DNA of 32,000 nt from Chlamydiota bacterium (GCA_016196885.1 JACPWU010000028.1:1-32000), one strand, 5' to 3'; positions 1 to 14,806 are shown, numbered from the stretch's first letter. Notes: a model not told the origin generated them from the sequence alone. Made by a program: numbers and translations.

Positions 1-2789
1 TAAAACCAGGGCATGAGGCCGAGGGGATTAGACCCCGTTTGGGCTTGCGTAATTCCATTGATTTCTCCAGGGGCTTGTTTTAACATTTGAATGAGGGCAC
101 GAGACAACTGAATGAACTGACTCAAAGACTCGCGTAAAGAAGTACTCGGTGGAGCGCTGGTGAACATCGCTGTACTGCTGCTTACGGCGGGGGCGATCAG
201 CGATGCGTTTATGGCATTTAAGCTCTGGACCAAGGTAGCAGTGCTATCATTGGGAGCTGTGGTGCTTGTAGGGGGGGTGTTCGTATATCCCAACAAAGAT
301 TCACACAAGGAGGAAAGGTAAAATGGTAATTCTTGTTGGTTTGGCAATTTTTGCAGTGGTGATGGCCATTCTTGTGAATGTTGATGACTATCGGAAGGCC
401 CACCACCCCCACCATCGTTAGGAAGGGCACGCAATACTGCTTGCAAAGATTCAGCATTTTGCTGTGCGGCTTTTAAAAGTCCTGTAAGATCTTCTTGTTC
501 CCCTTCTATCCCCATTCTCTGAAAAAGTAAATTTCGAGCCTCTAGATCTGGAACCAATTGATGAAGGGCGGCTACGGCCAAGGCACGTGTGGCCGGAGTC
601 TCACTTGTTAAATTTCCTCGAAGACCCTCGAGTAATTGTTGACTTTCTTCATCCAACTGAAGTCCTTCAAGATTTTCTTGAATAAGTTGAGCAAAGGGTC
701 CGGCTTTTTCAGCCCATTGAACGAGTATTTGATTAACGGCAAAGGCAGCTGTTGTATTTCCTTCTTTATTCTTCTGGCTTACCTCAATCAAAGCTTTAAA
801 GACTTGAATAAATTCTGTGAGTCGAGCTTGTAAATGTTCCGGCGTAAGTTGTGCTTCTAAAGAAAGGGTTGGATCACCTAAGGCGTCTCCTGGTTCTTCT
901 CCGTCTCCTTTTAAAACACTGGAGAATTCTTTCATTTTTCTAAAATAAATATCGCGGTCTTCAATTTTTGAGGTGTGAGGGGCAATCACCCAATAACCGA
1001 TATTCGCAGCCTTCAGTTTTTCTTTGATGCCCTCTGTGTGAAAACCTCCCACAACCAATGCGACAGATTTGAGATTTTTATCCCGAATTATTTTTTGAAT
1101 TTTTTCTTGGAAAATCTCGTCGCGTTCTAAAACTCCCTTGTAGAATTTTTCTGCTGCACCAAAAACCTCAGAGAGATCGGGGGTTTCAAATGAGAGATTG
1201 TTTTGTTGAGTTAGTTTTTTGAGATGATGAATAAAATTATCAACAAATTGATTTTCTTGTATGTCTTTCCTCCCCCTTGCTTTTTTAAGGGGGAATGAGG
1301 GGGTTACTTGTTCTTCTCTCATAACTCCCCTAACCCCTCTTACCTTAAGATGGGAATAAAAGACCTTTCCAATATCTTCTCTCGTCCCTTCCATCGATAT
1401 AACTCGATTCAAAACAGCGTAACTCTTCTCAATTTTAAGCAATTTCTTGATTTCTTCTTCGTTTTCTTTTCCACTGTACGCTGTACGCTCCACGCTATCC
1501 GCTAGCTTTTGAATTTCTCCCTCCAACTTTTCCCAGGAAAGATTCTTCATCAACTCCATTTCTTCAAAGAGCAATTCTAAATTTTTATAGTGCCGTACAT
1601 CGTCTTGATTTTCCCTCCCCTTAAAATAAGGGGAGCCGGAGGGGTTATCGTTCTCTTTCATAACTCCCCCTTCCCCTAACTCCCCAAACCTCTTTAAGGA
1701 AGTAACTCCCCAGGCCCCTCTTACCTTAAGAGGGGGTATTGATAAAAGAGGGGGTATTATCTTAAGAGGGGAGAGCTTCTCTTCAGTTACTAATTTTAAA
1801 TACTGTTTTAAAAATAAATAATGCTCAACCTCGCTTCTCTTTCCCAACCGATATTCCAAAACCTCTCTCAAAAGTTTTTGTGCCTCTTCTTTGACAAGAG
1901 ATTTTTCTAAGACCTCTAAATAGACAAGATACTCTCCTTCAACAGCTGAAAGATCTATCTTTTCTTCAAGATCTTTAAGCTCGAGGTATCTGGTGATCTG
2001 AGGATAGCTTTGTTTTCCAATTTTGATTTCTGATTTGTCATTTTGATTTTTGATATTTGATATTTGATTTAAATACTCCCCCATCTTGATGTTGTGACTT
2101 TCATACTTTTCCTTAAATTCCATCAACTCACGAAGCTCTGAAGGGTAAATTCTTTCTCTGAGCTGATGAATCACTTCCTCCATTTTTATCCATTCAGACT
2201 CTTCGGATTCTTTGATTTCCAAAAGTTCGCCCATGCTTTTGACATTTTCAACATAGGGTTTAATTTCCTCGACTCCGATCCCCTCCACTTTTTGAGGACC
2301 TTCTTCTATCAAGAAGGCCTCCACGCCATTGATGTCATGATTCTCTAGAAATTTAAGGCTCGCCGCCTTTAAAACTTCTTTATCCGGAAAGCCCCAGAAA
2401 AATTGCATGTCCATAGGCCCACTGGCCGCTTCAGCTAAAACATGAAGTTTCTCGCCTTTTGCTTCTTGGCCCTTCATTAAATATTGAAGAATTTTCTGAA
2501 TGTTTTTTTGAGCCTCTGAATGACAATGAATATCCTCTATTACATATAGGAGGGGTTGCCCCTGAATTTCATTTTTTTCGATCACTTCCCCAATATCATG
2601 CGGGATTTCCACGCGATCCAAAGATTCTTGAAAGGGCTCTGTTCTGAGGGGCCACTCAGCCGATTCTGTCCTTACTCCTACAGCTGGAATGAGTTTTGCC
2701 TCTTGAGCCAAAGCTTCTCGAGGCGTCAGGTCATAAACCAGAAAAGTCAGAATCAAGAAACTACTCATGAGTTTTCGAAGAAGATTCAT
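1..2789 (-). CDS. Large secreted protein, 3' end cut by the window edge (about 929 codons seen). Possibly a TraB/GumN/ChaN/Tiki-like fold carrying a very large insert.
   Basis: Not in the supplied ORF track because it has no in-window stop. Hand translation of the minus strand from ATG (2789..2787) gives MNLLRKLMSSFLILTFLVYDLTPREALAQE..., which looks like a signal peptide. The frame stays open to position 1; I checked the frame triplet by triplet over 1-60 and 1201-1800. The N-terminal motif LYVIEDIHCHSEAQ and, about 500 aa later, ERDEIFQEKI...VALVVGGFHTEGI recall the GxxH / ERD / GxxH pattern of the TraB-GumN-Tiki superfamily (from memory, not searched). The C-terminal part is S/T/P/Q-rich with a GGGGG run. 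Confidence 0.7.
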   Translation of the reverse strand, partial: MNLLRKLMSSFLILTFLVYDLTPREALAQEAKLIPAVGVRTESAEWPLRTEPFQESLDRVEIPHDIGEVIEKNEIQGQPLLYVIEDIHCHSEAQKNIQKILQYLMKGQEAKGEKLHVLAEAASGPMDMQFFWGFPDKEVLKAASLKFLENHDINGVEAFLIEEGPQKVEGIGVEEIKPYVENVKSMGELLEIKESEESEWIKMEEVIHQLRERIYPSELRELMEFKEKYESHNIKMGEYLNQISNIKNQNDKSEIKIGKQSYPQITRYLELKDLEEKIDLSAVEGEYLVYLEVLEKSLVKEEAQKLLREVLEYRLGKRSEVEHYLFLKQYLKLVTEEKLSPLKIIPPLLSIPPLKVRGAWGVTSLKRFGELGEGGVMKENDNPSGSPYFKGRENQDDVRHYKNLELLFEEMELMKNLSWEKLEGEIQKLADSVERTAYSGKENEEEIKKLLKIEKSYAVLNRVISMEGTREDIGKVFYSHLKVRGVRGVMREEQVTPSFPLKKARGRKDIQENQFVDNFIHHLKKLTQQNNLSFETPDLSEVFGAAEKFYKGVLERDEIFQEKIQKIIRDKNLKSVALVVGGFHTEGIKEKLKAANIGYWVIAPHTSKIEDRDIYFRKMKEFSSVLKGDGEEPGDALGDPTLSLEAQLTPEHLQARLTEFIQVFKALIEVSQKNKEGNTTAAFAVNQILVQWAEKAGPFAQLIQENLEGLQLDEESQQLLEGLRGNLTSETPATRALAVAALHQLVPDLEARNLLFQRMGIEGEQEDLTGLLKAAQQNAESLQAVLRALPNDGGGGGPSDSHQHSQEWPSPLQKLPNQQELPFYLSSLCESLLGYTNTPPTSTTAPNDSTATLVQSLNAINASLIAPAVSSSTAMFTSAPPSTSLRESLSQFIQLSRALIQMLKQAPGEINGITQAQTGSNPLGLMPWF
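1269..1354. repeat. Palindromic G-run/C-run element, copy 1 (three hairpin modules), in frame inside the 1..2789 ORF
   Basis: Module a: TCCCCCTT (1271-1278) pairs with AAGGGGGA (1287-1294). Module b: GGGGGTTA (1299-1306) pairs with TAACTCCCC (1322-1330) with one bulge. Module c: CCCCTCTTA (1334-1342) pairs with TAAGATGGG (1346-1354), 8 of 9. Minus-strand translation is ...HLKVRGVRGVMREEQVTPSFPLKKARGRKD... with no stop. Confidence 0.75.
1615..1775. repeat. Palindromic G-run/C-run element, copy 2 (same modules, expanded), in frame inside the 1..2789 ORF
   Basis: Module a: CTCCCCTTA (1615-1623) pairs with TAAGGGGAG (1627-1635). Module b: GGGGTTAT pairs with ATAACTCCCC (about 1641-1670). Module c: CCCCTCTTA (1715-1723) pairs perfectly with TAAGAGGGG (1727-1735). 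Two further AAGAGGGG(GTATT) direct copies extend to 1775. Translation is ...PLKIIPPLLSIPPLKVRGAWGVTSLKRFGELGEGGVMKENDNPSGSPYFKGREN... with no stop. Module order and reading phase match copy 1. Confidence 0.75.
2021..2070. repeat. Heptad-word tract (TTTTGAT family) translated in frame within the 1..2789 ORF
   Basis: The sequence is ttttgat ttctgat ttgtcat tttgattt ttgata tttgata tttgatt. On the minus strand it encodes NQISNIKNQNDKSEIKI. Confidence 0.7.
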
Positions 2790-2996: not shown

Positions 2997-3230
2997 ATGA
3001 AATCTATTACAACTAGCTTTTCCATACCTAAAATCTTAGAACAAGAGCTTAAAAAAGAAGCTCGAAAAGAACATCGAACCAAAAGTGGTTTGATTCAAGA
3101 AGCCATCCGTTTTTATTTAGAAAACAAGCGCTGGAAGAAATTACAACAGGACATTATCCTACGGGCAAGCCGTTTAGGTATTTCATCCCCTGACGACGTT
3201 GAGGATATGGTCGACGAAGAGCGCAAATGA
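2997..3230 (+). CDS. Ribbon-helix-helix (CopG-like) antitoxin
   Basis: Starting from ATG 2997 (the track start at 2904 is a TTG far upstream) gives MKSITTSFSIPKILEQELKKEARKEHRTKSGLIQEAIRFYLE. This is a beta-strand then helix-helix pattern typical of RHH antitoxins. The stop overlaps the PIN gene start as ATGA. Confidence 0.7.
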   Translation: MKSITTSFSIPKILEQELKKEARKEHRTKSGLIQEAIRFYLENKRWKKLQQDIILRASRLGISSPDDVEDMVDEERK

Positions 3231-3637
3231 GAGTGGTTTGTGATACGAACATCCTGATCTCGGCCTTCATCTTTCCAGGAGGGCCTCCCGATCAAGTAGT
3301 GACATTGTCTCGACTCAAAGAATTCACACTCTGCCTTTCCCCCGATATTTTGACAGAGTTTAAAAAAGTTCTGATTTCTAAATTCAAATACTCCCCCACA
3401 GATGCAAATTTACTTTTGGAAAGAGTTACTTCCTTTTGTGAAATGATTTATCCTCACGAAAAAATTGAAATCATAAAAAGAGTTGATGCAGACAATCGAA
3501 TCTTGGAATGTGCTTTAGAAGCAAAAGCTGATTTTCTGATATCTGGAGACAAGAGAGATATTCTTCCCTTGAGAAAAATTGAAAAAACTCTCATCATCAC
3601 TGCTTCAGAGTTTCTAGAATATTGGAGGACACATTGA
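3227..3637 (+). CDS. PIN-domain toxin (VapC-like)
   Basis: MRVVCDTNILISAF supplies the first acidic residue, with ...ILTEF... and ...FLISGDKRDIL following. Size is 136 aa, and there is a 4-nt ATGA overlap with the upstream antitoxin. Confidence 0.85.
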   Translation: MRVVCDTNILISAFIFPGGPPDQVVTLSRLKEFTLCLSPDILTEFKKVLISKFKYSPTDANLLLERVTSFCEMIYPHEKIEIIKRVDADNRILECALEAKADFLISGDKRDILPLRKIEKTLIITASEFLEYWRTH

Positions 3638-4563
3638 TTCAGGCTCCGACAAAAAACCTTAAAATCATTCTTGCTAAAAATCTCCAAAAAAACTACGGCT
3701 CACGCGAGGCGGTGCGCTCTATTTCGTTTGAAATTGAATCTCAAAAATGTTTTGGATTTTTGGGACCGAATGGTGCAGGGAAAAGCTCAACTTTGAAAAT
3801 GATTTATGGGGCCATTCCCTCAACATCCGGCACACTTTTGATCTTGGGAAAAGAAATGAAAAAAGAGCCTAGAGGCATCAAAGCCGTTCTGGGCGTGATC
3901 CCTCAAGAAGAAAATTTGGATCCGGAACTGAATGTTCTTGAGAATTTAATCGTTTTCTCACGTTATTTTAATATTCCTCGAAAAACAGCTTCTGAAAAAG
4001 CTTTAAATCTGCTTAATTTTTTCCATCTAAAAGACAGAGGAAATTCCAGGGTGGATGAACTTTCATCGGGTCTTAAGAAAAGGCTTCTGATTGCACGAGG
4101 TCTTATCAACGAACCCAAGATTCTCATTCTGGATGAACCCACCACGGGACTGGACCCCCAAAGCCGTCACATCATCTGGGAAAAACTCAGACAATTAAAA
4201 CATCAGGGACTCACCATTCTTCTGACCACCCACTATATGGAAGAGGCCAGCCAACTGTGTGATGACATTGTCATCATGGATCATGGCAAAATTTTAAGGA
4301 GAGGACACCCACTTCGATTAATTGAAGAAGAAGTCGGAAAAGAAATCATCGAGATTCGTTCGTCGTCGCCCATGATTGAAAAAGAAATTGCTTCGATGAA
4401 TTTGCGCTATGAGCATATCGGCGATGTTTTTTACATTTATTGCGAGAATGGACACGTGTTACTTCCCAAACTTTCTCAGATTGAACATGAGCGCGTGATT
4501 CATCGTCCAGCCACATTGGAGGATTTATTTTTGAAATTAACAGGACGGGAGTTGTCAGAGTAA
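3622..4563 (+). CDS. ABC transporter ATP-binding protein, ABC-2 exporter type (DrrA/NodI-like)
   Basis: Walker A GPNGAGKSST, signature LSSGLKKRL, Walker [14 protein letters not shown]-loop LLTTHYMEE. The start is uncertain. An in-frame TTG at 3634 lies 5 nt after GGAGG (3624-3628) and may be the real start. Confidence 0.93.
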   Translation: MEDTLIQAPTKNLKIILAKNLQKNYGSREAVRSISFEIESQKCFGFLGPNGAGKSSTLKMIYGAIPSTSGTLLILGKEMKKEPRGIKAVLGVIPQEENLDPELNVLENLIVFSRYFNIPRKTASEKALNLLNFFHLKDRGNSRVDELSSGLKKRLLIARGLINEPKILILDEPTTGLDPQSRHIIWEKLRQLKHQGLTILLTTHYMEEASQLCDDIVIMDHGKILRRGHPLRLIEEEVGKEIIEIRSSSPMIEKEIASMNLRYEHIGDVFYIYCENGHVLLPKLSQIEHERVIHRPATLEDLFLKLTGRELSE

Positions 4564-4568
4564 AAGAA

Positions 4569-4642
4569 CGTACTTCGTGCAGCGAACATCGTACATCGTT
4601 ATTTTGTTGTTGCGATGTTCGAAGTACGACGCACGATGTACA
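4569..4642. repeat. Heptad-word hairpin (CG-phased family) between the ABC ATPase and permease genes
   Basis: Left arm: cgtactt cgtgcag cgaacat cgtacat cg (4569-4598). Right arm: cgatgtt cgaagta cgacgca cgatgta ca (4613-4642). 24 of 30 positions are complementary, with a 14-nt loop. Confidence 0.8.
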
Positions 4643-4677
4643 GGATTTTCATTCGCTTGAATGGACAAAAATTGATA

Positions 4678-5454
4678 ATGACAATGATAAAAACATTAAC
4701 CCTTCGATTTGCTCTCAAAGTCTGGCAAAGAAATTTTGATGTCTGGAGAAAGTCTCTGGGTGTAAGCCTTATTGGAAGCTTGGGGGAACCTGTCCTTTAT
4801 TTACTCGGCATGGGATTTGGGCTGGGCTCTTATTTAGGAACCATGGATGGAACACCTTATCTTCAATATATTGCGCCGGGTCTTATTCTCTCCTCCGGAA
4901 TGTATGCAGCGACTTATGAATGTACGTATGGAGCATTCTTACGCATGATTCATCTCAAGACTTATGATGCCATCAGCTCAACTCCGGTGAGCCTTGAAGA
5001 AGTGATTGCAGGAGATATTTTTTGGGGAATGACCAAATGCCTCATCAGCGGCTCTATTATGTTTCTGGCCTGTCTTACATTTGGCCTCATTCATTCGGGG
5101 TGGGCTGTGGGACTTTTTCCATTGTTACTCATCGGAGGATTTCTTTTCTCGAGCTTGGCCATGTGGATCACATCCAAGGCCAAAACATTTGAATGGTTCA
5201 ACTATTATCTCGAACTTTTCATCACGCCCATGTTCTTTTTTTCAGGGATCTTTTTTCCTTTAGATCATTTTCCAAAAACCGTCCAGACCTTCGCCCGCGT
5301 TTTTCCTCTCACCCACTTGGTTCGCTCTGCCAGAGACCTCATTCAGGGAAAAATTCATCCCGGAATTTTGTTCACTTTCTTTTTCATCTTATCGATCAGT
5401 CTTGCCCTTTTCTTCATCGCCATTCGAGGTGTGGCGAAGAGATTGATCAAGTAA
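4678..5454 (+). CDS. ABC-2 type transporter permease (DrrB/NodJ-like)
   Basis: Multi-pass hydrophobic protein directly downstream of the ATPase. I moved the start from the track's 4615 (inside the hairpin) to ATG 4678 (MTMIKTLTLRF...). ATG 4684 is also possible. Confidence 0.85.
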   Translation: MTMIKTLTLRFALKVWQRNFDVWRKSLGVSLIGSLGEPVLYLLGMGFGLGSYLGTMDGTPYLQYIAPGLILSSGMYAATYECTYGAFLRMIHLKTYDAISSTPVSLEEVIAGDIFWGMTKCLISGSIMFLACLTFGLIHSGWAVGLFPLLLIGGFLFSSLAMWITSKAKTFEWFNYYLELFITPMFFFSGIFFPLDHFPKTVQTFARVFPLTHLVRSARDLIQGKIHPGILFTFFFILSISLALFFIAIRGVAKRLIK

Positions 5455-5926: not shown

Positions 5927-6328
5927 TTACCTCGTAAAATACCGATCGCTGGGAGCACCTCGTACTTCACCCTTAATTTCTGTGGGCTGAGAATTTTGAC
6001 TGATGTCTTTCATGGCTTTCACGGATTCTTCATGCCATTTTTGAAAATCGTTTAATTCCTTTTCAAACTTTTCCTGAGTCTCCTGCAATTTTTGCAAACC
6101 CTCTTCATATTTTTTTGAAACATCTTCCAATTGATGCATCACATCCTCTTCATGCCTTCTCATTTCATCAATCTGTTGAATCAGCCCTCTATAGTCCAAA
6201 ACCACATCATCGGGATGGCGCATCATTTCAGGAGGCCTTCTCTCTCTCTGGTTATTTTCAGAATCCTGAGCCATGCCAAAACCTATCCCCAGAACAAGAC
6301 ACATCAAGCACGATAAAAATTTCTTCAT
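5927..6328 (-). CDS. Small secreted coiled-coil protein, hypothetical
   Basis: The N-terminus [22 protein letters not shown] looks like a signal peptide. The rest is charged and heptad-like (EEDVMHQLEDVSKKYEEGLQKLQETQEKFEKEL). Its ATG (6328-6326) overlaps the uvrA-fusion stop TGA (6327-6325) as ATGA. Confidence 0.6.
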   Translation of the reverse strand: MKKFLSCLMCLVLGIGFGMAQDSENNQRERRPPEMMRHPDDVVLDYRGLIQQIDEMRRHEEDVMHQLEDVSKKYEEGLQKLQETQEKFEKELNDFQKWHEESVKAMKDISQNSQPTEIKGEVRGAPSDRYFTR

Positions 6329-9300
6329 AAATTCTTTTCCTTAATTTTGATTTTTGATTTTTGATTTATTTTTACTAAATACCTCCCCGTATACGATTCC
6401 TTTGCACCCATCACCTCCAGGGGAGAACCCTGGGCTACAATTCTTCCGCCGCCGGCTCCCCCTTCAGGCCCTAAATCCAAAATATAATCCGACTGACGAA
6501 TCAAATCCAAATTATGCTCGATCACAAGGACCGTGTTCCCCAAATCAACCAATTTTTGCAGAATCTTCATCAATTTTTCAATGTCGGCAAAATGGAGTCC
6601 TGTGGTCGGTTCGTCCAAAATATAAAGTGTCTTACCTCGATTTCTCTTGATCAACTCATAGGCCAATTTAATCCGCTGAGCCTCTCCCCCTGAGAGCGTC
6701 GGACTGGGCTGACCCAATTCTAAATAGCCCAGGCCTAGTTCATTCAAAAGCTTCAAAGGGTCATGGATCTTAGGAATATTTTCAAAAAAGGAAACGGCCT
6801 CTTCAAGGGTCATCCCTAAAACTTCTGCGATGGTCTTTCCTTTGAAAGAAACTTCTAATGTCTCTGGATTAAAACGGGCCCCATGACAATCATCGCAAAC
6901 CACATACACCTCGGGTAAAAAACTCATTTCGATTTTGATACGGCCCTGTCCCCCACATTTTTCGCAGCGCCCGCCCACCAAATTAAAACTGAATCGGGCG
7001 GGAGAGTAACCCCTCACCTTGGCCTCCGGCATCATGGCATAAAGCTCTCGCAGGTAGGGATAAAACCCGACATAAGTCGCCGGAATAGACCGCGGCGTTT
7101 TTCCAATAGGGGTTTGATCTACTTCAATCACCCGTTCTATTTTCTCATGGCCTAGAATTTTATCATGCGCCCCGACCCACACGGGAGATTCATCCTTCAT
7201 CCGCCGCAAGCCCTGATAAAGCACATCTCTCACCAACGTGCTTTTTCCGGATCCAGAAACTCCCGTCACACATACGAGACGCCCCAAGGGAATTTTTGCG
7301 TGAACATTTTTCAAATTATGAGCCCTCGCCCCCTTCACTTCTAAGAAAGAGGCGTCCCGCCACGGTCGAGGCTTTATTCCATTCATTTGATAAAGATTTT
7401 TTAAATAGTGGCCGGTCACAGATTTTTCTTCTGCCATAATTTGGTGAGGCGTTCCCTGGGCGATCACCCAGCCGCCTCTTCGACCTGCCCCTGGACCTAA
7501 ATCAATCACATGGTCAGAAGCCAAAATCGTTTCTTCATCATGCTCTACCACAAGCACACTGTTCCCGCGATCCCTTAATTTCTTCAATGTCTCTAGCAGT
7601 TTTTCATGATCCCGTACATGAAGTCCAATGGTCGGCTCATCCAAAATATAGCATACGCCCTGCAAGGCGGATCCCAGCTGAGCAGCCAGACGCACCCGTT
7701 GAGATTCACCTCCTGACAAACTCTGCACGGGCCGATCTAAAGTCAAATAGCCTAGACCCACCTCGTTCAAAAATTCCAGACGATGACTCCATTCTTTTAA
7801 AATGTTCTTCGCAATAAGAAGTTCCCGCTCGTCCAGTTTTAAACGCCTCACATATTGAAGCGTTTGTTGGACAGACATCGCGGTGATATCGGTAATTGAT
7901 TTCCCATGAAAAAATACCGCCCGTGCATCGGGCTTGAGCCTCGTCCCTTGACAAGCTGTACAAGTTTTTTGCCTGGCCTCATCTTCCTCCAACCAAACAT
8001 CTCCTTCTTCTTGAACCTCTTCTTTTGTGATAAATCCCAACCCGTGACATTTAGGGCAGGCCCCATGACGACTGTTAAAGGAGAAAAGGCGCGGGTCTAA
8101 CTCTTTAAAACTGATTTCGCAGCGCGGACAATAACGCTTGAGGCTGTAAAGCTCGTCTTCCCTTCCAGGAACGTTTAAGAAAAAGGAAGATTTTCCAAAC
8201 TGCAAGGCCTCTTCCACCCTTTTCTTCAATTCAAAAGCACTTTTCTCTCCTATCTTTATTTCTGCCAAAAGCGCATCAAGGGTGTGCTCTGAAAAACGCT
8301 CTAATTTAGGGATGGGCAGCACCGAACGAATGCGACCATCCACCCGGGCTTTTGAGATTCCATTTTTCTCCAATTTTTGAAAAATATCTTTGTGATAGCC
8401 CTTCTTCGCTCGAACGAGAGGCGCAAGAAATCGTACGACCTCCCCTTCATGAGACTCTGAAATCCGATCATAAATCTGACGGACTGTCTGAGAACCGATT
8501 TTCTGACCACACTGATGACAATGTTGAATGCCAATTTTGGAATACAGCAGTCTTAAAAAATGATAAATCTCAGTCACCGTGGCCACGGTAGACCGTGCAC
8601 CGCCTTGAGTCAGCCGTTGCTCGATTGCAACCGTCGGCGGAATTCCCTCAATCCAATCAATGTCGGGTCTGGATACCTGCGTCATAAACTGCCGGGCATA
8701 ACTGGACAGACTCTCAATGTAGCGACGCTGCCCTTCCGCAAAAATCACATCATACGCCAAAGTCGATTTACCCGATCCTGAAAGCCCTGTAATCACCACA
8801 AGCTTGTCTCGTGGAATTTCTACGTTGATGCTCTTCAGGTTGTGCTCGCGAGCACCGACGACGCGGATGCATCGTGAATGGGAGATGGGATTTATGGTGA
8901 GGGGTGAGGGGTGAGGGGTGAGTTCTAAGTTTTGGGTTTCGAGTTTTAAATTTTCGATTTTTGAGATGTCATTTTGATTTTCGATTTTTGATTTTTGATT
9001 TGTACCTACTCTTTTCTCTCCTAACACCTCTTTTAAAAACCTGCCCGTATGCGAGGCTTCGCATCGAGCCAACTCTTCAGGCGTTCCAACCCCCACTACT
9101 TGTCCTCCCGCTTCTCCTCCCTCCGGTCCCAAATCAATGCAATGATCTGCACATTTAATCACATCCAGATTGTGTTCAATCACCACCACAGAATTCCCGT
9201 CTTCGATCAAACGCTCAAAGGCCAACAATAATTTTTGAATGTCTTCAGGATGAAGACCCGTGGTCGGTTCATCAAACAAAAAAAGACAATTCTCTCTCCT

Positions 9301-11904
9301 GAGAATTCCCATAAAATAAGCCAATTTTAACCGTTGGGATTCCCCTCCCGAAAGCGTATTCAAAGGCTGACCCAACCTCAGATACCCCAAGCCGATCTCA
9401 TCCAAGACGTTCAAGGGGCGAGAGATTTTCAAATGCTCACGAAAAAATTCCCGCGCCTCATTCACGGTCAAATTCAGAATCTCAGAGACATTCTTTTCCT
9501 GATAACGTACCTCCAACACCTCTTTGCGATAGCGATGGCCCAAACACTCCGGACATTTCACATACACGTCTGAAAGAAATTGCATTTCAATCTTTTCGAA
9601 GCCCTCACCCTCACAGCGGTCGCACCTGCCTCCTTCTACATTGAAAGAAAATGTACTAGGTCCGTAACGACGAACCTTGGCCAAGGAAGTTCGGGCCAAT
9701 AAACCGCGAATGGGGTCAAACACCTTCAAATACGTTGCAGGATTCGATCGAGGAGTTCGGCCAATCGGATCCTGATCCACCAAAATGACATCGCCGATCT
9801 CGTCCTGACCGACAATCCCCTGACAGCGGCCAGGCTGTGCTACAAGATCTCTCCTGATCTTGCGAAGCCCCCGGTAGAGAACCTCTTCAATCAACGTACT
9901 CTTCCCAGATCCGGAAACGCCGGTAATGCAAACCAAAACATCCAAGGGAATCTTGACAGTGATTCCCTTTAAATTATTTTGTGAAGCCTTTTCAATTTGA
10001 ATGGAGCGCTGAAGGAAGGGTCTACGCCGCCTTTGAGGAATCGGAATCTCTAAGGTCCCACTTAAGTATTTTCCGGTGAGAGATGAAGGGTGCTTCATCA
10101 GATCCGAGACGGACCCTTGAAAAACAATTTGTCCTCCCCACTCCCCTGCCCCAGGGCCTAAGTCAATCACGTGATCACAATGACGAATGATGTCCGAATC
10201 ATGCTCTACCAACACCAGCGTGTTTTGATTTCTTTTAAGGCGGTGCAAAATTTGAACCAGCCGCGCATTGTCTCTCGCGTGAAGACCCATGCTGGGTTCG
10301 TCCAAAATAAAAAGGGTGTTCACCAAATTGGTGCCAATGGCCGTCGTCAAATTCACCCGCTCCACTTCTCCTCCCGAGAGCGTTTTCGAAGGACGATCCA
10401 GTGTCAAATAACCTACGCCCACATCTTTTAGATATTTCAATCTCGACTGAATTTCCTGAAGAAGCATTTTTGCAATCTTCTCCTGGGACCCTTTGAAATT
10501 GATTTGCTCAAAAAAAGTGAGTGATTCCTCCACATTCATGGCATAAATTTCGGCAATGGTTTTCCCACCCAATTTAACGCACAACACCTCCCTCTTAAAT
10601 CGCGTCCCCCTGCAATCCTGACAAATCACAAAACTGCGATACCTCGCCAGCAAGACGCGAATATGCATTTTATAGGATTTTGAATTCAGCCAATCAAAAA
10701 ATCCGCGAATCCCATACCATTGGGGCCAATCCCCCTCGCCACGTATCACCCATTCTTGAGCCCAAAGAGGTAAATCCTGAAAAGGAACATCGGTGCTCAC
10801 TCCCTTCTTTCGAGCATGCTCCATCATTTCATCTTGACACTCATGATAGGCCTCGGTCTGCCAAGGCTTCACCGCCCCTTCTTTCAAGGTCTTGCGTCGA
10901 TCTGGAATAATCATGTCCAAATCCATATCAATGTTTCTTCCAAATCCACGACAGGTCGCACAGGCCCCCAAGGGATGATTAAACGAAAAAAGATTTGGAG
11001 TTAAATCTTGATAATAAAGGTCGCAGTCGGGGCAATGATAATGAAGGCTGAATTTTAAACAGTTGGAGGTTTGTTCTTCCAACTTCCAACCTTCAACCTC
11101 TAACCGTTTTATTAAATGAATCGTCAACTTCCCCTTCCCAAACCGATATGCCTGTTCCAAAGAATCCAAACAGCGTGCTCGATTTTCGGAACTTATTTCC
11201 ATATGATCCACAAAAACCTCTAGCGTCTTGCCCCTTTCCTTCTCCAGCAAAGCCTCATCAATGGGCCGGACCTCATTTTCTAAAATGGCCTTTCGAAAAC
11301 CCATGCGCGAAAAACCTTCTAATAATTCTGAAGCCTGTAATTTGGAAGAAAGAAGTAACGGGAAACTCACCGAAAGCATTCCTGTTTTCATCTCTACAAG
11401 AGAACTGAAAACCGCCTCAGGTGTTTCCACACGAACCTCGCGACCACATTTCTGGCAAAAAAGAGTCCCCAATTTCGCAAAAACCAGTTTCACAAAATCC
11501 GTGATTTCTGTCATGGTCCCCACGGTAGAACGGGAACCCCTCACGCGGTCCGTCTGATCAATGGCAATCGCCGGCAAAATTCCTTCGATTTCGTCCACCT
11601 CTGGCTTATCCATGCGGTCCAAAAACTGGCGGGCATACGCCGAAAAACTCTCGACATAGCGGCGCTGACCCTCCGCATAAAGCGTGTCAAAGGCAAGACT
11701 GGACTTCCCAGAGCCGCTCACCCCTGTCACCACCGTCACCTCGCCCATGGGCAGGCGTACATCCACATTCTTTAAATTGTGCTGACGCACCCCCTTGAGA
11801 GAAATAAATCTAGAGCGCTCTTTCGAAGGAATGTCAGAAAAAGCCTTAACATCCACTGGTTTATTTTGAACGGGTTCTTCTAATTTCAACGACATCTCTT
11901 TCAC
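6325..11904 (-). CDS. uvrA: Tandem-fused double UvrA (two complete UvrA-like units in one 1859-aa polypeptide)
   Basis: Four ABC nucleotide-binding domains are present, with Walker A motifs [27 protein letters not shown] and GVSGSGKST and repeated LSGGE signatures. Each half begins with the UvrA signature ..G.R.HNLKN..V..P.....[28 protein letters not shown]. CxxC zinc modules are present in both halves. The GTG start at 11904 lies 5 nt after AGAGGA. Confidence 0.95.
6341..6372. repeat. Heptad-word tract (TTTTGAT x3) encoding the C-terminal tail of the UvrA fusion
   Basis: The sequence ttaattttgatttttgatttttgatttattttt encodes ...[15 protein letters not shown] on the minus strand. Confidence 0.7.
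8897..9001. repeat. 15 consecutive heptads forming the in-frame linker between the two UvrA units
   Basis: The sequence is gtgaggg x3, gtgagtt, ctaagtt, ttgggtt, tcgagtt, ttaaatt, ttcgatt, tttgaga, tgtcatt, ttgattt, tcgattt, ttgattt, ttgattt. On the minus strand it is translated as [35 protein letters not shown]. Confidence 0.85.
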
Positions 11905-13193: not shown

Positions 13194-13599
13194 GGAACTC
13201 CTGCTCTTAGATACCCACGTTTGGATTTGGCTGATGAATGGTGAGAAAAGACTCAAATCCTCCAAAGACCTTCCCAAAATCGAAAAGGCCGCCCGACATT
13301 CACAGCTTGTTATCTCTGCCATTTCCTTTTGGGAAATTGGAATGTTGGAAGCCAAGGGAAGAATTCAATTTTCACTGAGCTGTCCGGAGTGGCTTCACCA
13401 AGCTCTGTCTGTCCCTGGTATAATCCCCATCGGTCTCACGCCAGAGATCGCAGTGGAAAGCAGCCGGCTCCCTGGGTATTTTCACGCAGACCCAGCCGAT
13501 CGCATCATCGTAGCAACAGCCCGGCAATGCGGTGCCACCCTTGTCACAGCAGACAAAAATATTCTGAACTATAAAAACGTGGATACACTACGTGTTTAA
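13177..13599 (+). CDS. vapC: PIN-domain toxin VapC
   Basis: From ATG 13177: MLNPDKELLLLDTHVWIWL (Asp), ISAISFWEIGML (Glu), ADPADRIIVATA (Asp). The track start at 13156 is an upstream TTG. The gene overlaps the antitoxin by 17 nt. Confidence 0.85.
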   Translation: MLNPDKELLLLDTHVWIWLMNGEKRLKSSKDLPKIEKAARHSQLVISAISFWEIGMLEAKGRIQFSLSCPEWLHQALSVPGIIPIGLTPEIAVESSRLPGYFHADPADRIIVATARQCGATLVTADKNILNYKNVDTLRV

Positions 13600-13603
13600 A
13601 ACC

Positions 13604-14806
13604 TCACTTTTCTCTCAACCTCGAAAGATAAAATCGGTAGGATTTTTCGAGATCTGTGAATTTTAAAACTTTTTCTTTTAAGGCGTCTGGAAGCTGATCG
13701 GATTGGACAGCTTCGGAAAGGGCATTGAGATTGAGATCCGAAAATTTTTCCCATTCGCCAGCCTCCCTTACCAGCCTTTCCAAGGCCCCGCGGCGAGGGT
13801 CATCCTTCAGAGGAAATTTATATACCTCTTTCCCCTTGATTTTTAATTTATAGTCGCTGCCATGCACCACCTCCACCCCCTCTTTCTCGGCATAGGCGAT
13901 CAAGGCTTCTTTGATTTTTTCCAGTTCCTCGTCCATTTGTTTCACCAAATCATTTTTCTTGGTTGATATCTCTGCGTAACGATTGACCAAGGTGACGCCC
14001 GTTTCATTCAAATATTCATGAACCGGCAGCACCTCCACTTTCCGAAGATGTTTCATCAGGGGACAAATATCCACAAACTCACACCAGGGGCAAATCGCAC
14101 TTTCACGCGGCGGAAAATCCTTTGCAGATTCAACTTCGCGAATCACTTGAATGGTTTGCTCTCTCACTTGCGCCAAATCGGAAGGCGAGCGTTCTGAAAC
14201 AAGCTGTCGATCAAAGGCAAGATAATGCCAGACGAGGCGAACCCCTTTCACATCCGGCCATTGCTGCTGGATACCGATTTGATAAAGGGCCAACTGACGA
14301 TCCTGATCCACCTTCTCCTGTGTCGGTAAAGTCTGACCTGTTTTATAATCATGAATTTCAAGAACGCCATCTTCACCCTGGGCCAGCCGATCAATAAAAC
14401 CCATCAGGCGGTATTCCCCGCGTTCATCCAAATTGATAAAAATTTGCTGTTCCAGGCCCAAGGTTCTTGTCTGATCAAAGGGATAGAATTTTCGATAATA
14501 ATCGCGAATACATTTTTCTCCCAACTTCCGATAATTTTCAGCCGTATAATCTTTTTTAATCATCTCCACATTTTCTGACCAATTCTTGCGCCAGTCATCA
14601 TTGTAAAAGGTGAGAAGATCGCCCAGGCTGTTCATCTTGGTCACCTTTAAATCGCGGTAAAGCTTCTCAAGCGTTTCGTGAACGCGTTTGCCCAAAAAGG
14701 CCTCTATCGTCTCTCGGTCTTTCTTAATCCGATCCACGTAGCGGTATTTATATTGAAGGGGACAGGTCTCATAAGTCCCCAAGCGAGAATGAGAATAGAC
14801 TGGCAT
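13604..14806 (-). CDS. PD-(D/E)XK nuclease family protein (RecB/Cas4-like, with Cys cluster)
   Basis: N-terminus YSHSRLGTYETCPLQYKYRYV. Core GFIDRL...LEIHDYKTG (D...ExK-type). QLALYQ motif. C-terminal cluster CPWCEFVDICP, so together with the N-terminal Cys this is a Cas4/AddB-like four-Cys arrangement. A further 130 aa of unknown function follow. ATG 14806 is preferred over the track's TTG at 14815. Confidence 0.85.
   Translation of the reverse strand: MPVYSHSRLGTYETCPLQYKYRYVDRIKKDRETIEAFLGKRVHETLEKLYRDLKVTKMNSLGDLLTFYNDDWRKNWSENVEMIKKDYTAENYRKLGEKCIRDYYRKFYPFDQTRTLGLEQQIFINLDERGEYRLMGFIDRLAQGEDGVLEIHDYKTGQTLPTQEKVDQDRQLALYQIGIQQQWPDVKGVRLVWHYLAFDRQLVSERSPSDLAQVREQTIQVIREVESAKDFPPRESAICPWCEFVDICPLMKHLRKVEVLPVHEYLNETGVTLVNRYAEISTKKNDLVKQMDEELEKIKEALIAYAEKEGVEVVHGSDYKLKIKGKEVYKFPLKDDPRRGALERLVREAGEWEKFSDLNLNALSEAVQSDQLPDALKEKVLKFTDLEKSYRFYLSRLREK

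Follow-up and report, generated by a model that had tools for sequence, protein, structure and literature searches.

In-frame palindromic elements of a Chlamydiae gene as probable nuclease-less copies of a hairpin-bounded DUF559 cassette

How does a palindromic repeat, of a type expected to lie between genes, come to be read as part of a protein, and what keeps its stems intact once it is there? The question is raised by a 32,000-nucleotide stretch of DNA from a Chlamydiota bacterium (GCA_016196885.1, JACPWU010000028.1:1-32000), the whole of which is here called the window, where a three-hairpin palindromic element occurs twice within one long open reading frame (ORF). The host ORF lies on the minus strand, runs from position 2789 past position 1, i.e., beyond the left edge of the window (1-2789), is stop-free for at least 929 codons (at least 929 aa) and corresponds to the NCBI protein HYZ67_05185, which derives from a Chlamydiae metagenome-assembled genome. 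The original prediction, made from the sequence, had seen in the two copies a selfish or structural DNA element tolerated as peptide insertions. In the reading that we consider probable, the two elements are in-frame, nuclease-less (“empty”) copies of a hairpin-bounded cassette that encodes a DUF559 endonuclease and occurs in many bacterial phyla.

The element, read on the coding strand, is built in a fixed order, namely hairpin c (CCCCTCTTAAGnTAAGAGGGG), a 3-nt spacer, the tag GGGGAGTTATG, a short loop, the tag TAACCCC, a further spacer and hairpin a (CTCCCCTTAnnnTAAGGGGAG), and the two tags, inverted with respect to each other, pair to form the middle hairpin b. All the predicted modules were found where they had been placed, the two copies extending over 1269-1357 (site 1) and 1613-1775 (site 2), both on the minus strand. 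Module c (CCCCTCTTAnnnTAAGAGGGG) is exact at 1715-1735 and has one mismatch at 1334-1354, module a (CTCCCCTTAnnnTAAGGGGAG) is at 1615-1635 with its site-1 counterpart TCCCCCTTGCTTTTTTAAGGGGGA at 1271-1294, and module b (GGGGTTA...TAACTCCCC) is at 1300-1330 and 1641-1669; from shuffled sequences, the chance expectation per window is 0.01 for module c and 0.00 for modules a and b, and none of the three patterns occurs elsewhere in the 32 kb window. RNA fold prediction gives three hairpins, both for site 1 (–33.7 kcal/mol, z –2.4) and for site 2 of an orthologous gene (–38.4 kcal/mol, z –3.3).

Site 1 is the compact three-hairpin form, encodes HLKVRGVRGVMREEQVTPSFPLKKARGR and is matched by a covariance model of the element at 76.2 bits (E 1e-18). 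It comprises hairpin c (CCCATCTTAAGGTAAGAGGGG on the coding strand, 1334-1354, with one stem mismatch), the 5′ tag GGGGAGTTA (1322-1330), which is the 5′ arm of hairpin b and is overlapped by an in-frame ATG at 1322-1320, the 3′ tag TAACCCCC (1299-1306), which is the 3′ arm of the same hairpin, and hairpin a (TCCCCCTTAAAAAAGCAAGGGGGA on the coding strand, 1271-1294), recognized both by pattern and in the RNA fold. Site 2 is a long form with reiterated tags and half-arms (covariance-model match 53.5 bits) encoding SPLKIIPPLLSIPPLKVRGAWGVTSLKRFGELGEGGVMKENDNPSGSPYFKGRE, in which hairpin c (CCCCTCTTAAGGTAAGAGGGG, 1715-1735) and hairpin a (CTCCCCTTATTTTAAGGGGAG, 1615-1635) both have a perfect 9-bp stem. 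Between them lie three GGGGAGTTA tags (1703-1711, 1677-1685 and 1661-1669, together 1661-1711), the last of which bears an in-frame ATG at 1661-1659, and the 3′ tag TAACCCC (1641-1647). This copy also has extra reiterations of AAGAGGGG, at 1746 and 1764, in the extra half-arms CCCCTCTTAAGATAATA and CCCCCTCTTTTATCAATA that lie 5′ of hairpin c on the coding strand (1736-1775), and extra TAACTCCCC tags at 1677 and 1703. The half-arm extension is also seen at site 1 of the orthologous gene of HYS07, and a comparable tag reiteration in loci L154 and L157 of the wider family described below.

Both copies are read in one phase and without stops, site 1 as HLKVRGVRGVMREE... and site 2 as PLKVRG...GGVMKEN..., as had been predicted. 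Since the remaining two coding-strand frames contain 3-5 stops in each copy, so that a single frame is stop-free, the phase shared by the two copies reflects a filter and not a coincidence. At the gathering threshold, Rfam 15 has zero matches in the window or in seven element loci, and at E values up to 10 the matches are at chance level only. A hammerhead-like three-way junction was discarded as a candidate, the conserved core being absent and the Rfam matches zero.

The age of the insertions can be judged from the relatives of the host gene. Among 5.8 billion proteins, the close relatives of its product are just P0002 (HYZ66, 55% identity) and P0003 (HYS07, 40% identity). The site-2 element is present in all three orthologous genes and the site-1 element in the window and in HYS07, while at site 1 of HYZ66 the element has been replaced or has decayed, with the gene retained; the in-frame ATG is kept in all five copies. 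Where a codon specifies the same amino acid in two orthologues, the third position is identical in 86-100% of cases within the element vs. 34-53% in the flanking coding sequence, and the amino-acid identity between orthologues is 69-81% in the element vs. 46-57% in the flanks. Between the window and HYZ66 all 52 of 52 stem and tag positions are identical; between the window and HYS07, taking both sites, identity is found at 101/103 positions of stems and tags and at 42/54 positions of unpaired loops and spacers (p 5.5e-5). The hairpin-a variant is specific to each site across species (TCCCCC at site 1, CTCCCC at site 2), and no compensatory stem changes were seen between orthologues. Because the DNA palindromes are conserved and each site keeps its own hairpin-a variant, the window copies are read, from these comparisons, as old orthologous insertions and not recent transfers, with stems and tags apparently under sequence-specific constraint. 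The opposite outcome, orthologues keeping the residues without the palindromic DNA, had been named, in combination with an element occurring nowhere else in the genome, as fatal to the original prediction; what is conserved at the same sites is the palindrome itself. Of its idea of a tolerated peptide insertion, the in-frame, stop-free residence stands, whereas a fresh insertion or a passive tolerance does not agree with sites common to orthologues and constrained stems, so that the copies cannot be put down to passive tolerance alone. When the 62,244 bases analysed from the three genomes (the window's own assembly, GCA_016196915.1 and GCA_016178055.1) were scanned, without filters, with a covariance model made from 15 compact elements, the five known copies were the only ones retrieved, and the next best score was 7.8 bits.

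Beyond these three genes, the element belongs to a wide family of hairpin units. A search of species-representative genomes and viral contigs with an 18-base pattern spanning the junction of hairpin c and tag matched at least 114 genomic stretches from many phyla, some genomes having several copies, and 36 viral contigs. The taxa among the matches listed include Dehalococcoidia/Chloroflexota, Nitrospirota, many Patescibacteria, Thermodesulfobacteriota, Gammaproteobacteria, a Calothrix, Auribacterota and Firestonebacteria. The complementary 5′ arm, which lies outside the searched pattern, is present in >90% of the matches listed, and conservation drops abruptly at both edges of a unit of ~38 nt. 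The left unit consists of hairpin CCCCTCTTAnnnTAAGAGGGG and tag GGGGAGTTATG, the right unit of tag TAACCCC and hairpin CTCCCCTTAnnnTAAGGGGAG. The left-unit consensus drawn from 125 genomic and 51 viral copies, YYCCCCTCTTARGnTAAGAGGGGnnRGGGGAGTTAtg, is matched exactly by site 2 and with one stem mismatch by site 1, and the window copies also conform to the right-unit pattern, i.e., TAAC(C/T)CCC, a spacer of 2-9 nt (usually 3-5) and the hairpin (C/T)(C/T)CCCCTTA...TAAGGGG(A/G)(A/G), head-to-head with the left unit. Among the matches listed, ~70% are solitary left units, ~15% have a right unit downstream, as in the window, and ~15% have one upstream; many stem variants across the family retain perfect complementarity.

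The expectation of an intergenic REP/MITE-like repeat (repetitive extragenic palindrome, REP; miniature inverted-repeat transposable element, MITE) is borne out for this family, which is dispersed and of which ~97% of the copies outside the window are extragenic among the matches listed. Outside the Chlamydiae genes, 2/126 copies among the matches listed are clearly within long ORFs, and both are in the frame used in the window: one is in the Mfd linker of a Giovannonibacteria (Patescibacteria) genome, exactly between the UvrB-interaction and RNA-polymerase-interaction domains, and the other in a giant WD40 protein (>2,666 aa) of Auribacterota. The stop-free in-frame behaviour that had been likened to that of the Rickettsia palindromic elements recurs, therefore, outside the window. 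At the peptide level, a profile search of the 5.8 billion proteins yielded no more than five ORFs, all tiny and spurious; the unit had no blastn match among cultured phages and plasmids, and a literature search on the unit sequences returned unrelated primers only.

Two further arrangements of the units were encountered. In a conserved phage-like structural gene block on IMG/VR contigs (L117-L152) and in L017, L085 and L111, probably from Dehalococcoidia, left units (mostly ...GGGGCCAGGGGAGTTATGA) occupy several intergenic gaps, directly before gene starts. In L098 (5700-8000), five tail-to-tail unit pairs form a tandem array with a period of 148 nt, which adjoins an AbrB-type/RelE-type toxin-antitoxin pair, itself flanked by units; a near-match to the Acido-Lenti-1 RNA in the same locus (7636-7681, 35.7 bits vs. 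a gathering score of 37) lies outside the units.

The link to a nuclease comes from the genes found between units. When 2,662 ORFs of the element loci were clustered all against all, a single small recurrent family lay flush with the units, apart from the phage-like structural block, and this family is DUF559 (PF04480, E 1e-37; nearest structure 3hrl). In L016, L027, L065, L067 and L102 the gene is bracketed exactly, in the layout hairpin c-GGGGAGTTA(TG)...DUF559...TAAC(C)CCC-hairpin a. The association was also tested from the protein side, on 80 metagenomic loci picked by DUF559 protein similarity alone, with ORFs of the same loci as controls. A perfect hairpin of at least 8 bp is present within 80 nt upstream in 58/77 DUF559 loci vs. 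11/114 control ORFs, and downstream in 34/74 vs. 20/137. The ORF begins with the ATG of the tag GTTATG in 26/77 loci and ends with the TAA of the tag TAAC in 25/74, and the loci that fail the strict sequence test often carry co-varying versions of the same cassette layout. Among finished sequences, plasmids of Pseudanabaena and Picosynechococcus PCC 7002 have the arrangement hairpin-CTAGGGGGGC ... GCCCCCCTAG-hairpin with nuclease-less pairs adjacent, and a Deinococcus plasmid has a comparable arrangement; among relatives on viral contigs (34-48% identity), 11/13 show the layout, some with reverse-complementary loops in the 5′ and 3′ hairpins.

Short forms lacking the gene are common too, with a layout identical to that of the window copies: 21 compact c-tag...tag-a elements, 74-129 nt long, were counted. 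The window copies also agree fully with the cassette ends in the sequences, order and orientation of the units. An extended left end (AACAGGTAAGTTTTTCCAAAATT followed by the c-unit) is seen, in different genomic contexts, ahead of forms with the nuclease as well as forms without it. At an E. coli ycjD-like DUF559 locus (L238), a perfect 19-bp hairpin lies just upstream of the gene and CCCTCTCCCTGAAAGGGCGAGGGG-type repeats downstream; the link between DUF559 and hairpins may extend to enterobacteria. A Dcm/Vsr CCWGG site in the spacer was considered and dropped, being present in 5% of the genomic copies and in 45% of one viral-contig subfamily. Free-standing homing endonucleases that split genes and have 5′ hairpins are already known among the Vsr-like nucleases (PMC2677866), and DUF559 and Vsr fall in one PD-(D/E)XK clade, which includes a group I intron homing endonuclease (PMC3424549). 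In the literature searched on DUF559, on Vsr-like nucleases and on REPs with their partner transposases (REP doublets forming hairpins, REPINs; REP-associated tyrosine transposases, RAYTs), no description of the cassette layout was found.

Taken in this way, the full cassette reads [hairpin c]-nnn-GGGGAGTTATG ... ~115-aa DUF559 (Vsr-like PD-(D/E)XK) ORF ... TAACCCC-n5-[hairpin a], in its commonest arrangement with the nuclease start codon in the left tag and the stop codon in the right tag. Where the nuclease ORF is absent the inverted tags would be free to pair, creating the middle hairpin and hence the three-hairpin element of the window, and the Met of GVM(K/R)E would be the counterpart of the nuclease start codon. 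The element may have entered the variable middle of the gene's ancestor as a cassette whose nuclease ORF was lost afterwards, or else as a miniature mobilized in trans, selection having spared the in-frame versions only. The stems could then have been kept by a cognate protein that recognizes and re-copies them in a REP/RAYT-like or homing-like manner, the most plausible candidate being a DUF559 nuclease with its gene at another place in the genome; alternatively, the host may now use the structure, e.g., for mRNA behaviour or as an internal start at hairpin-GGGGAG-ATG. That the cassette is or once was mobile, that the miniatures derive from it or were mobilized by it, and that the nuclease recognizes the units is what we infer.

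Several observations weigh against this interpretation. No target-site duplication surrounds any of the 21 compact elements, and neither a clean empty/filled allele pair of the whole cassette nor near-identical multi-copy cassettes within one genome were shown, so that mobility is deduced from distribution alone. In the 62 kb made up by the window and the two orthologue loci there is no DUF559 gene and no sixth copy of the element, and the invariance of the stems between old orthologues is unlike a decaying relic. The solitary c-units, the large majority noted above, lie upstream of unrelated genes, e.g., those for RNase HII and MogA and phage structural genes, and the unit may therefore have an independent life, for instance as a portable module of hairpin and ribosome-binding site. 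In the same sense, hairpin c can be present or absent independently of the nuclease gene: at one site downstream of a tRNA gene, DUF559 is preceded by hairpin c in L213 and by the tag GGGAAGTTGTG alone in L197, and the 25-nt hairpin by itself is therefore an indel. The direction of derivation could also be either, with a cassette shrunk to a miniature or two units having captured a gene.

A broader version of the interpretation is put forward more tentatively, and we hold it to be possible though short of probable. The cassettes would be minimal selfish elements spanning phyla, each a ~115-aa DUF559 gene within inverted hairpin-tag units that hold its start and stop codons, which spawn many one- and two-unit miniatures and whose stems are kept by the nuclease and not by the host. 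They would then correspond in function to REP/RAYT while using another enzyme fold, with miniatures that persist in frame in the Chlamydiae gene, the Patescibacteria Mfd and the Auribacterota giant protein.

Other explanations account for parts of these data. An element that is now functional in its gene at the nucleic-acid level, its mRNA hairpins or DNA cruciform tuning translation speed, mRNA stability or processing, or its ATG serving as an internal start that gives truncated isoforms (Met377, Met490), would explain why, in orthologues with saturated synonymous sites in the flanks and drifting loops, stems and tags have remained 98-100% identical. Such a function would also suit the lack of nearby donor copies for homogenization in the 62 kb analysed from the three genomes, the ATG retained in five of five orthologue copies, and the fact that the hairpin-tag module provides the DUF559 start codon and lies directly upstream of the starts of other genes. 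The constraint, however, is on the exact sequence, beyond pairing, with no compensatory changes between orthologues in spite of many across the family, and recognition by a protein fits this at least equally well; moreover, HYZ66 lost site 1 yet kept the gene, hairpin c of site 1 in the window has a stem mismatch, and the spacing between GGGGAG and ATG is just 2 nt, short for a Shine-Dalgarno sequence. On balance we regard host-level function as unlikely, while taking it seriously. Selection on the peptide, with PLKVRG...GVM...NP..SP..KGRE as a conserved protein repeat and the palindromy as incidental, could be argued from the higher amino-acid identity of the element relative to its flanks and from the occurrence of the peptide twice in the host protein, but it is contradicted by the conservation of synonymous sites in the stems and by ~120 occurrences of the same DNA in non-coding positions of other phyla among the matches listed. 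To this can be added the five spurious ORFs that the profile search returned and the modelling of both segments as coil, at the lowest confidence of a poor model. The synonymous sites and the intergenic copies effectively refute the peptide repeat, which we give very little credence.

Transposition by other enzymes is the next issue. A repeat of REP type, including bacterial interspersed mosaic elements (BIMEs) and REPINs, or a classical MITE, moved by a Y1 (RAYT/IS200-like) or DDE transposase and having DUF559 as a frequent neighbour or cargo, would share with the present family the 21-nt palindromes with a flanking tag and their occurrence as single units, as head-to-head and tail-to-tail pairs and in tandem arrays (L098, 148 nt period), a picture close to that of the Y and Z REPs in BIMEs. 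The absence of a visible target duplication is as for IS200/IS605-type elements, and inverted REPs likewise flank RAYT genes (PMC3116915, PMC3733652). What makes this origin improbable is that there is no GTAG or CGTC tag, that no recurrent transposase family appears among the 2,662 clustered ORFs, where the sole small flush family is DUF559, and that the DUF559 start and stop codons lie within the tags, which therefore mark a co-evolved unit and not a chance neighbour. It would be more surprising still, and hardly credible, if the tail-to-tail pair (TAACCCC-hairpin a-hairpin c-GGGGAGTTAT) were an attC-like site of an integron, with the DUF559 genes, the toxin-antitoxin genes and the tiny spacers as gene cassettes. 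The integron R′ consensus is GTTRRRY, which is matched by the tag GTTAGAT of L098, where units alternate with the toxin-antitoxin pair and 47-nt “empty” spacers, and the ORFs are of cassette size. But the usual tag, GTTATGA, is incompatible with that consensus, ~70% of the c-units among the matches listed have no adjoining a-unit, and most DUF559 genes have half-units, c only 5′ and a only 3′, amid unrelated sequence and with no complete site per boundary; on this half-site layout the attC identity was rejected. Finally, the element could be suspected of being an artefact of assembly or binning, or a low-complexity palindrome arisen by chance, given that all the orthologue sequences come from metagenome assemblies and that hairpins of G and C runs can cause assembly errors, yet the probability of this is negligible in view of three independent assemblies sharing element sites in orthologous genes with frames intact, of a chance expectation of 0.00-0.01 in the window, and of homologous layouts in finished replicons of cultured strains.

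With respect to known systems, the element matches Rickettsia palindromic elements (RPEs) in behaviour and REP/BIME/REPIN-RAYT systems in organization. RPEs are short palindromic repeats that lie in frame within genes, and also in non-coding DNA, and have no transposase of their own. They were reportedly described by Ogata et al. in 2000 and 2002. They are also mentioned in PMC1458961. The window element, too, is a stop-free palindromic insert that adds a tolerated peptide in frame, but it differs in taxon, the host being Chlamydiae and not Rickettsia, and, as far as known, in sequence, and on description it is set apart by its modular structure of two 21-nt hairpins with inverted tags, by a family that spans many phyla and has DUF559 as candidate protein partner, and by stems that are conserved between orthologues instead of decaying. 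REPs (PMC3116915, PMC3733652) are 20-40-nt palindromes with a tag that are met with singly, as inverted pairs in which the two units differ slightly in type, or clustered, with a partner gene between two inverted units and with units far outnumbering partner genes, all of which resembles the present family. By contrast, the tag of the window family is GGGGAGTTA/TAAC(C/T)CCC, the partner is a PD-(D/E)XK DUF559 nuclease and not an HUH Y1 transposase, near-identical units are shared by different phyla whereas REPs are as a rule confined to one lineage, and the window copies are intragenic, though most of the family elsewhere is not.

Vsr-like homing endonucleases of “fractured genes” (Dassa et al., 2009; PMC2677866) and intron endonucleases of I-Bth0305I type are alike in consisting of a small Vsr-related PD-(D/E)XK ORF inserted as a selfish element in or between genes, in having a conserved hairpin just 5′ of the nuclease start codon, and in being able to land in protein-coding genes. 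Those nucleases are longer, however, belong to another subfamily and are found in association with split inteins, introns or phage genes; bracketing by inverted hairpin units and nuclease-less miniatures are not described for them, and in the window there is no nuclease ORF and the host gene is not split. Bacterial MITEs (Correia, Nezha) and the small dispersed repeats of cyanobacteria, the latter reportedly the subject of work by Elhai et al. in 2008, are similarly short, non-autonomous and hairpin-forming and represent the two ends of a longer element, and some of their copies lie in ORFs or supply expression signals. The present elements do have inverted ends, but these ends are themselves hairpins, and there is neither a target-site duplication in the 21 compact elements nor a DDE transposase parent. 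We class the elements with the in-frame selfish palindromes, as members of a family of hairpin units with a candidate DUF559 partner, no description of which was found in the literature searched.

The host protein itself is large and secreted-looking, with function unassigned and zero domains in a Pfam search. Its distant homologues align only at residues 60-315 and 548-621, and the insert-bearing middle is therefore variable; the AlphaFold model is very poor (mean predicted local distance difference test score, pLDDT, 33), both element segments being coil at the lowest confidence. Divergence along the gene is mosaic: the C-terminal 139 codons (residues 791-929, window 3-420, minus strand) are 98% DNA-identical between the window and HYZ66 (L002), whereas the N-terminal 335 codons have 62% DNA identity, a contrast that, at the level of sequence, points to recent recombination between lineages inside the gene. 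Further in-frame palindromic or repeat inserts occur in this gene family, at window 2030-2080 (minus strand, residues ~243-258), L001 10780-10910 and L002 10825-10990 and 10300-10480. HYZ66 has long inverted repeats (GAGGCTCGAGGCTCGAAGC...GCTTGAGCCTCGAGCCTC) at two sites, with the peptide LEARGSKLEAK...SLEPRASS, and HYS07 has a GCTGGGAGGCT...AGCCTCCCAGC repeat together with the motif GTCATTGCGAGCGAAGCGAAGCAATC (peptide FVIASEAKQS), whose core CATTGCGAG is present in 67/238 retrieved loci; the window retains just the AAATCA-rich half. Hairpin repeats of several families seem to have accumulated in this gene.

The C-terminal end of the HYS07 orthologue (L001 ~13570-14263) carries a weak intein/Hint-like segment (PF14890, E 6.5e-5, under the curated cut-off), and the following gene (L001 14344-16577) contains an intein splicing domain, so that more self-splicing or selfish modules appear to surround the HYS07 gene. 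In the window, just upstream of the host gene promoter region, a small ribbon-helix-helix-like ORF overlaps a 136-aa PIN-like ORF (2998-3637, plus strand), by appearance a putative toxin-antitoxin pair, after which come an ABC transporter pair (3622-5454) and, on the minus strand, an ORF of 1,859 aa (6325-11904).

DUF559 is among the commonest nuclease domains of “unknown function” in bacteria, and hairpin repeats made of G and C runs abound in the genomes of uncultured phyla, where they generate many spurious small ORFs such as PLKVRGARGVM. If the interpretation given here is true, DUF559 could be assigned a role open to testing, that of the enzyme working with a family of hairpin repeats, and the intergenic repeats of one large class would have an explanation; the annotation of metagenome-assembled genomes would also improve. 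The near-perfect stems within a fast-evolving gene are, in addition, a rare handle on nucleic-acid-level selection in coding sequence, and the Chlamydiae gene would represent a second independent case, besides Rickettsia, of selfish palindromes joining proteins.

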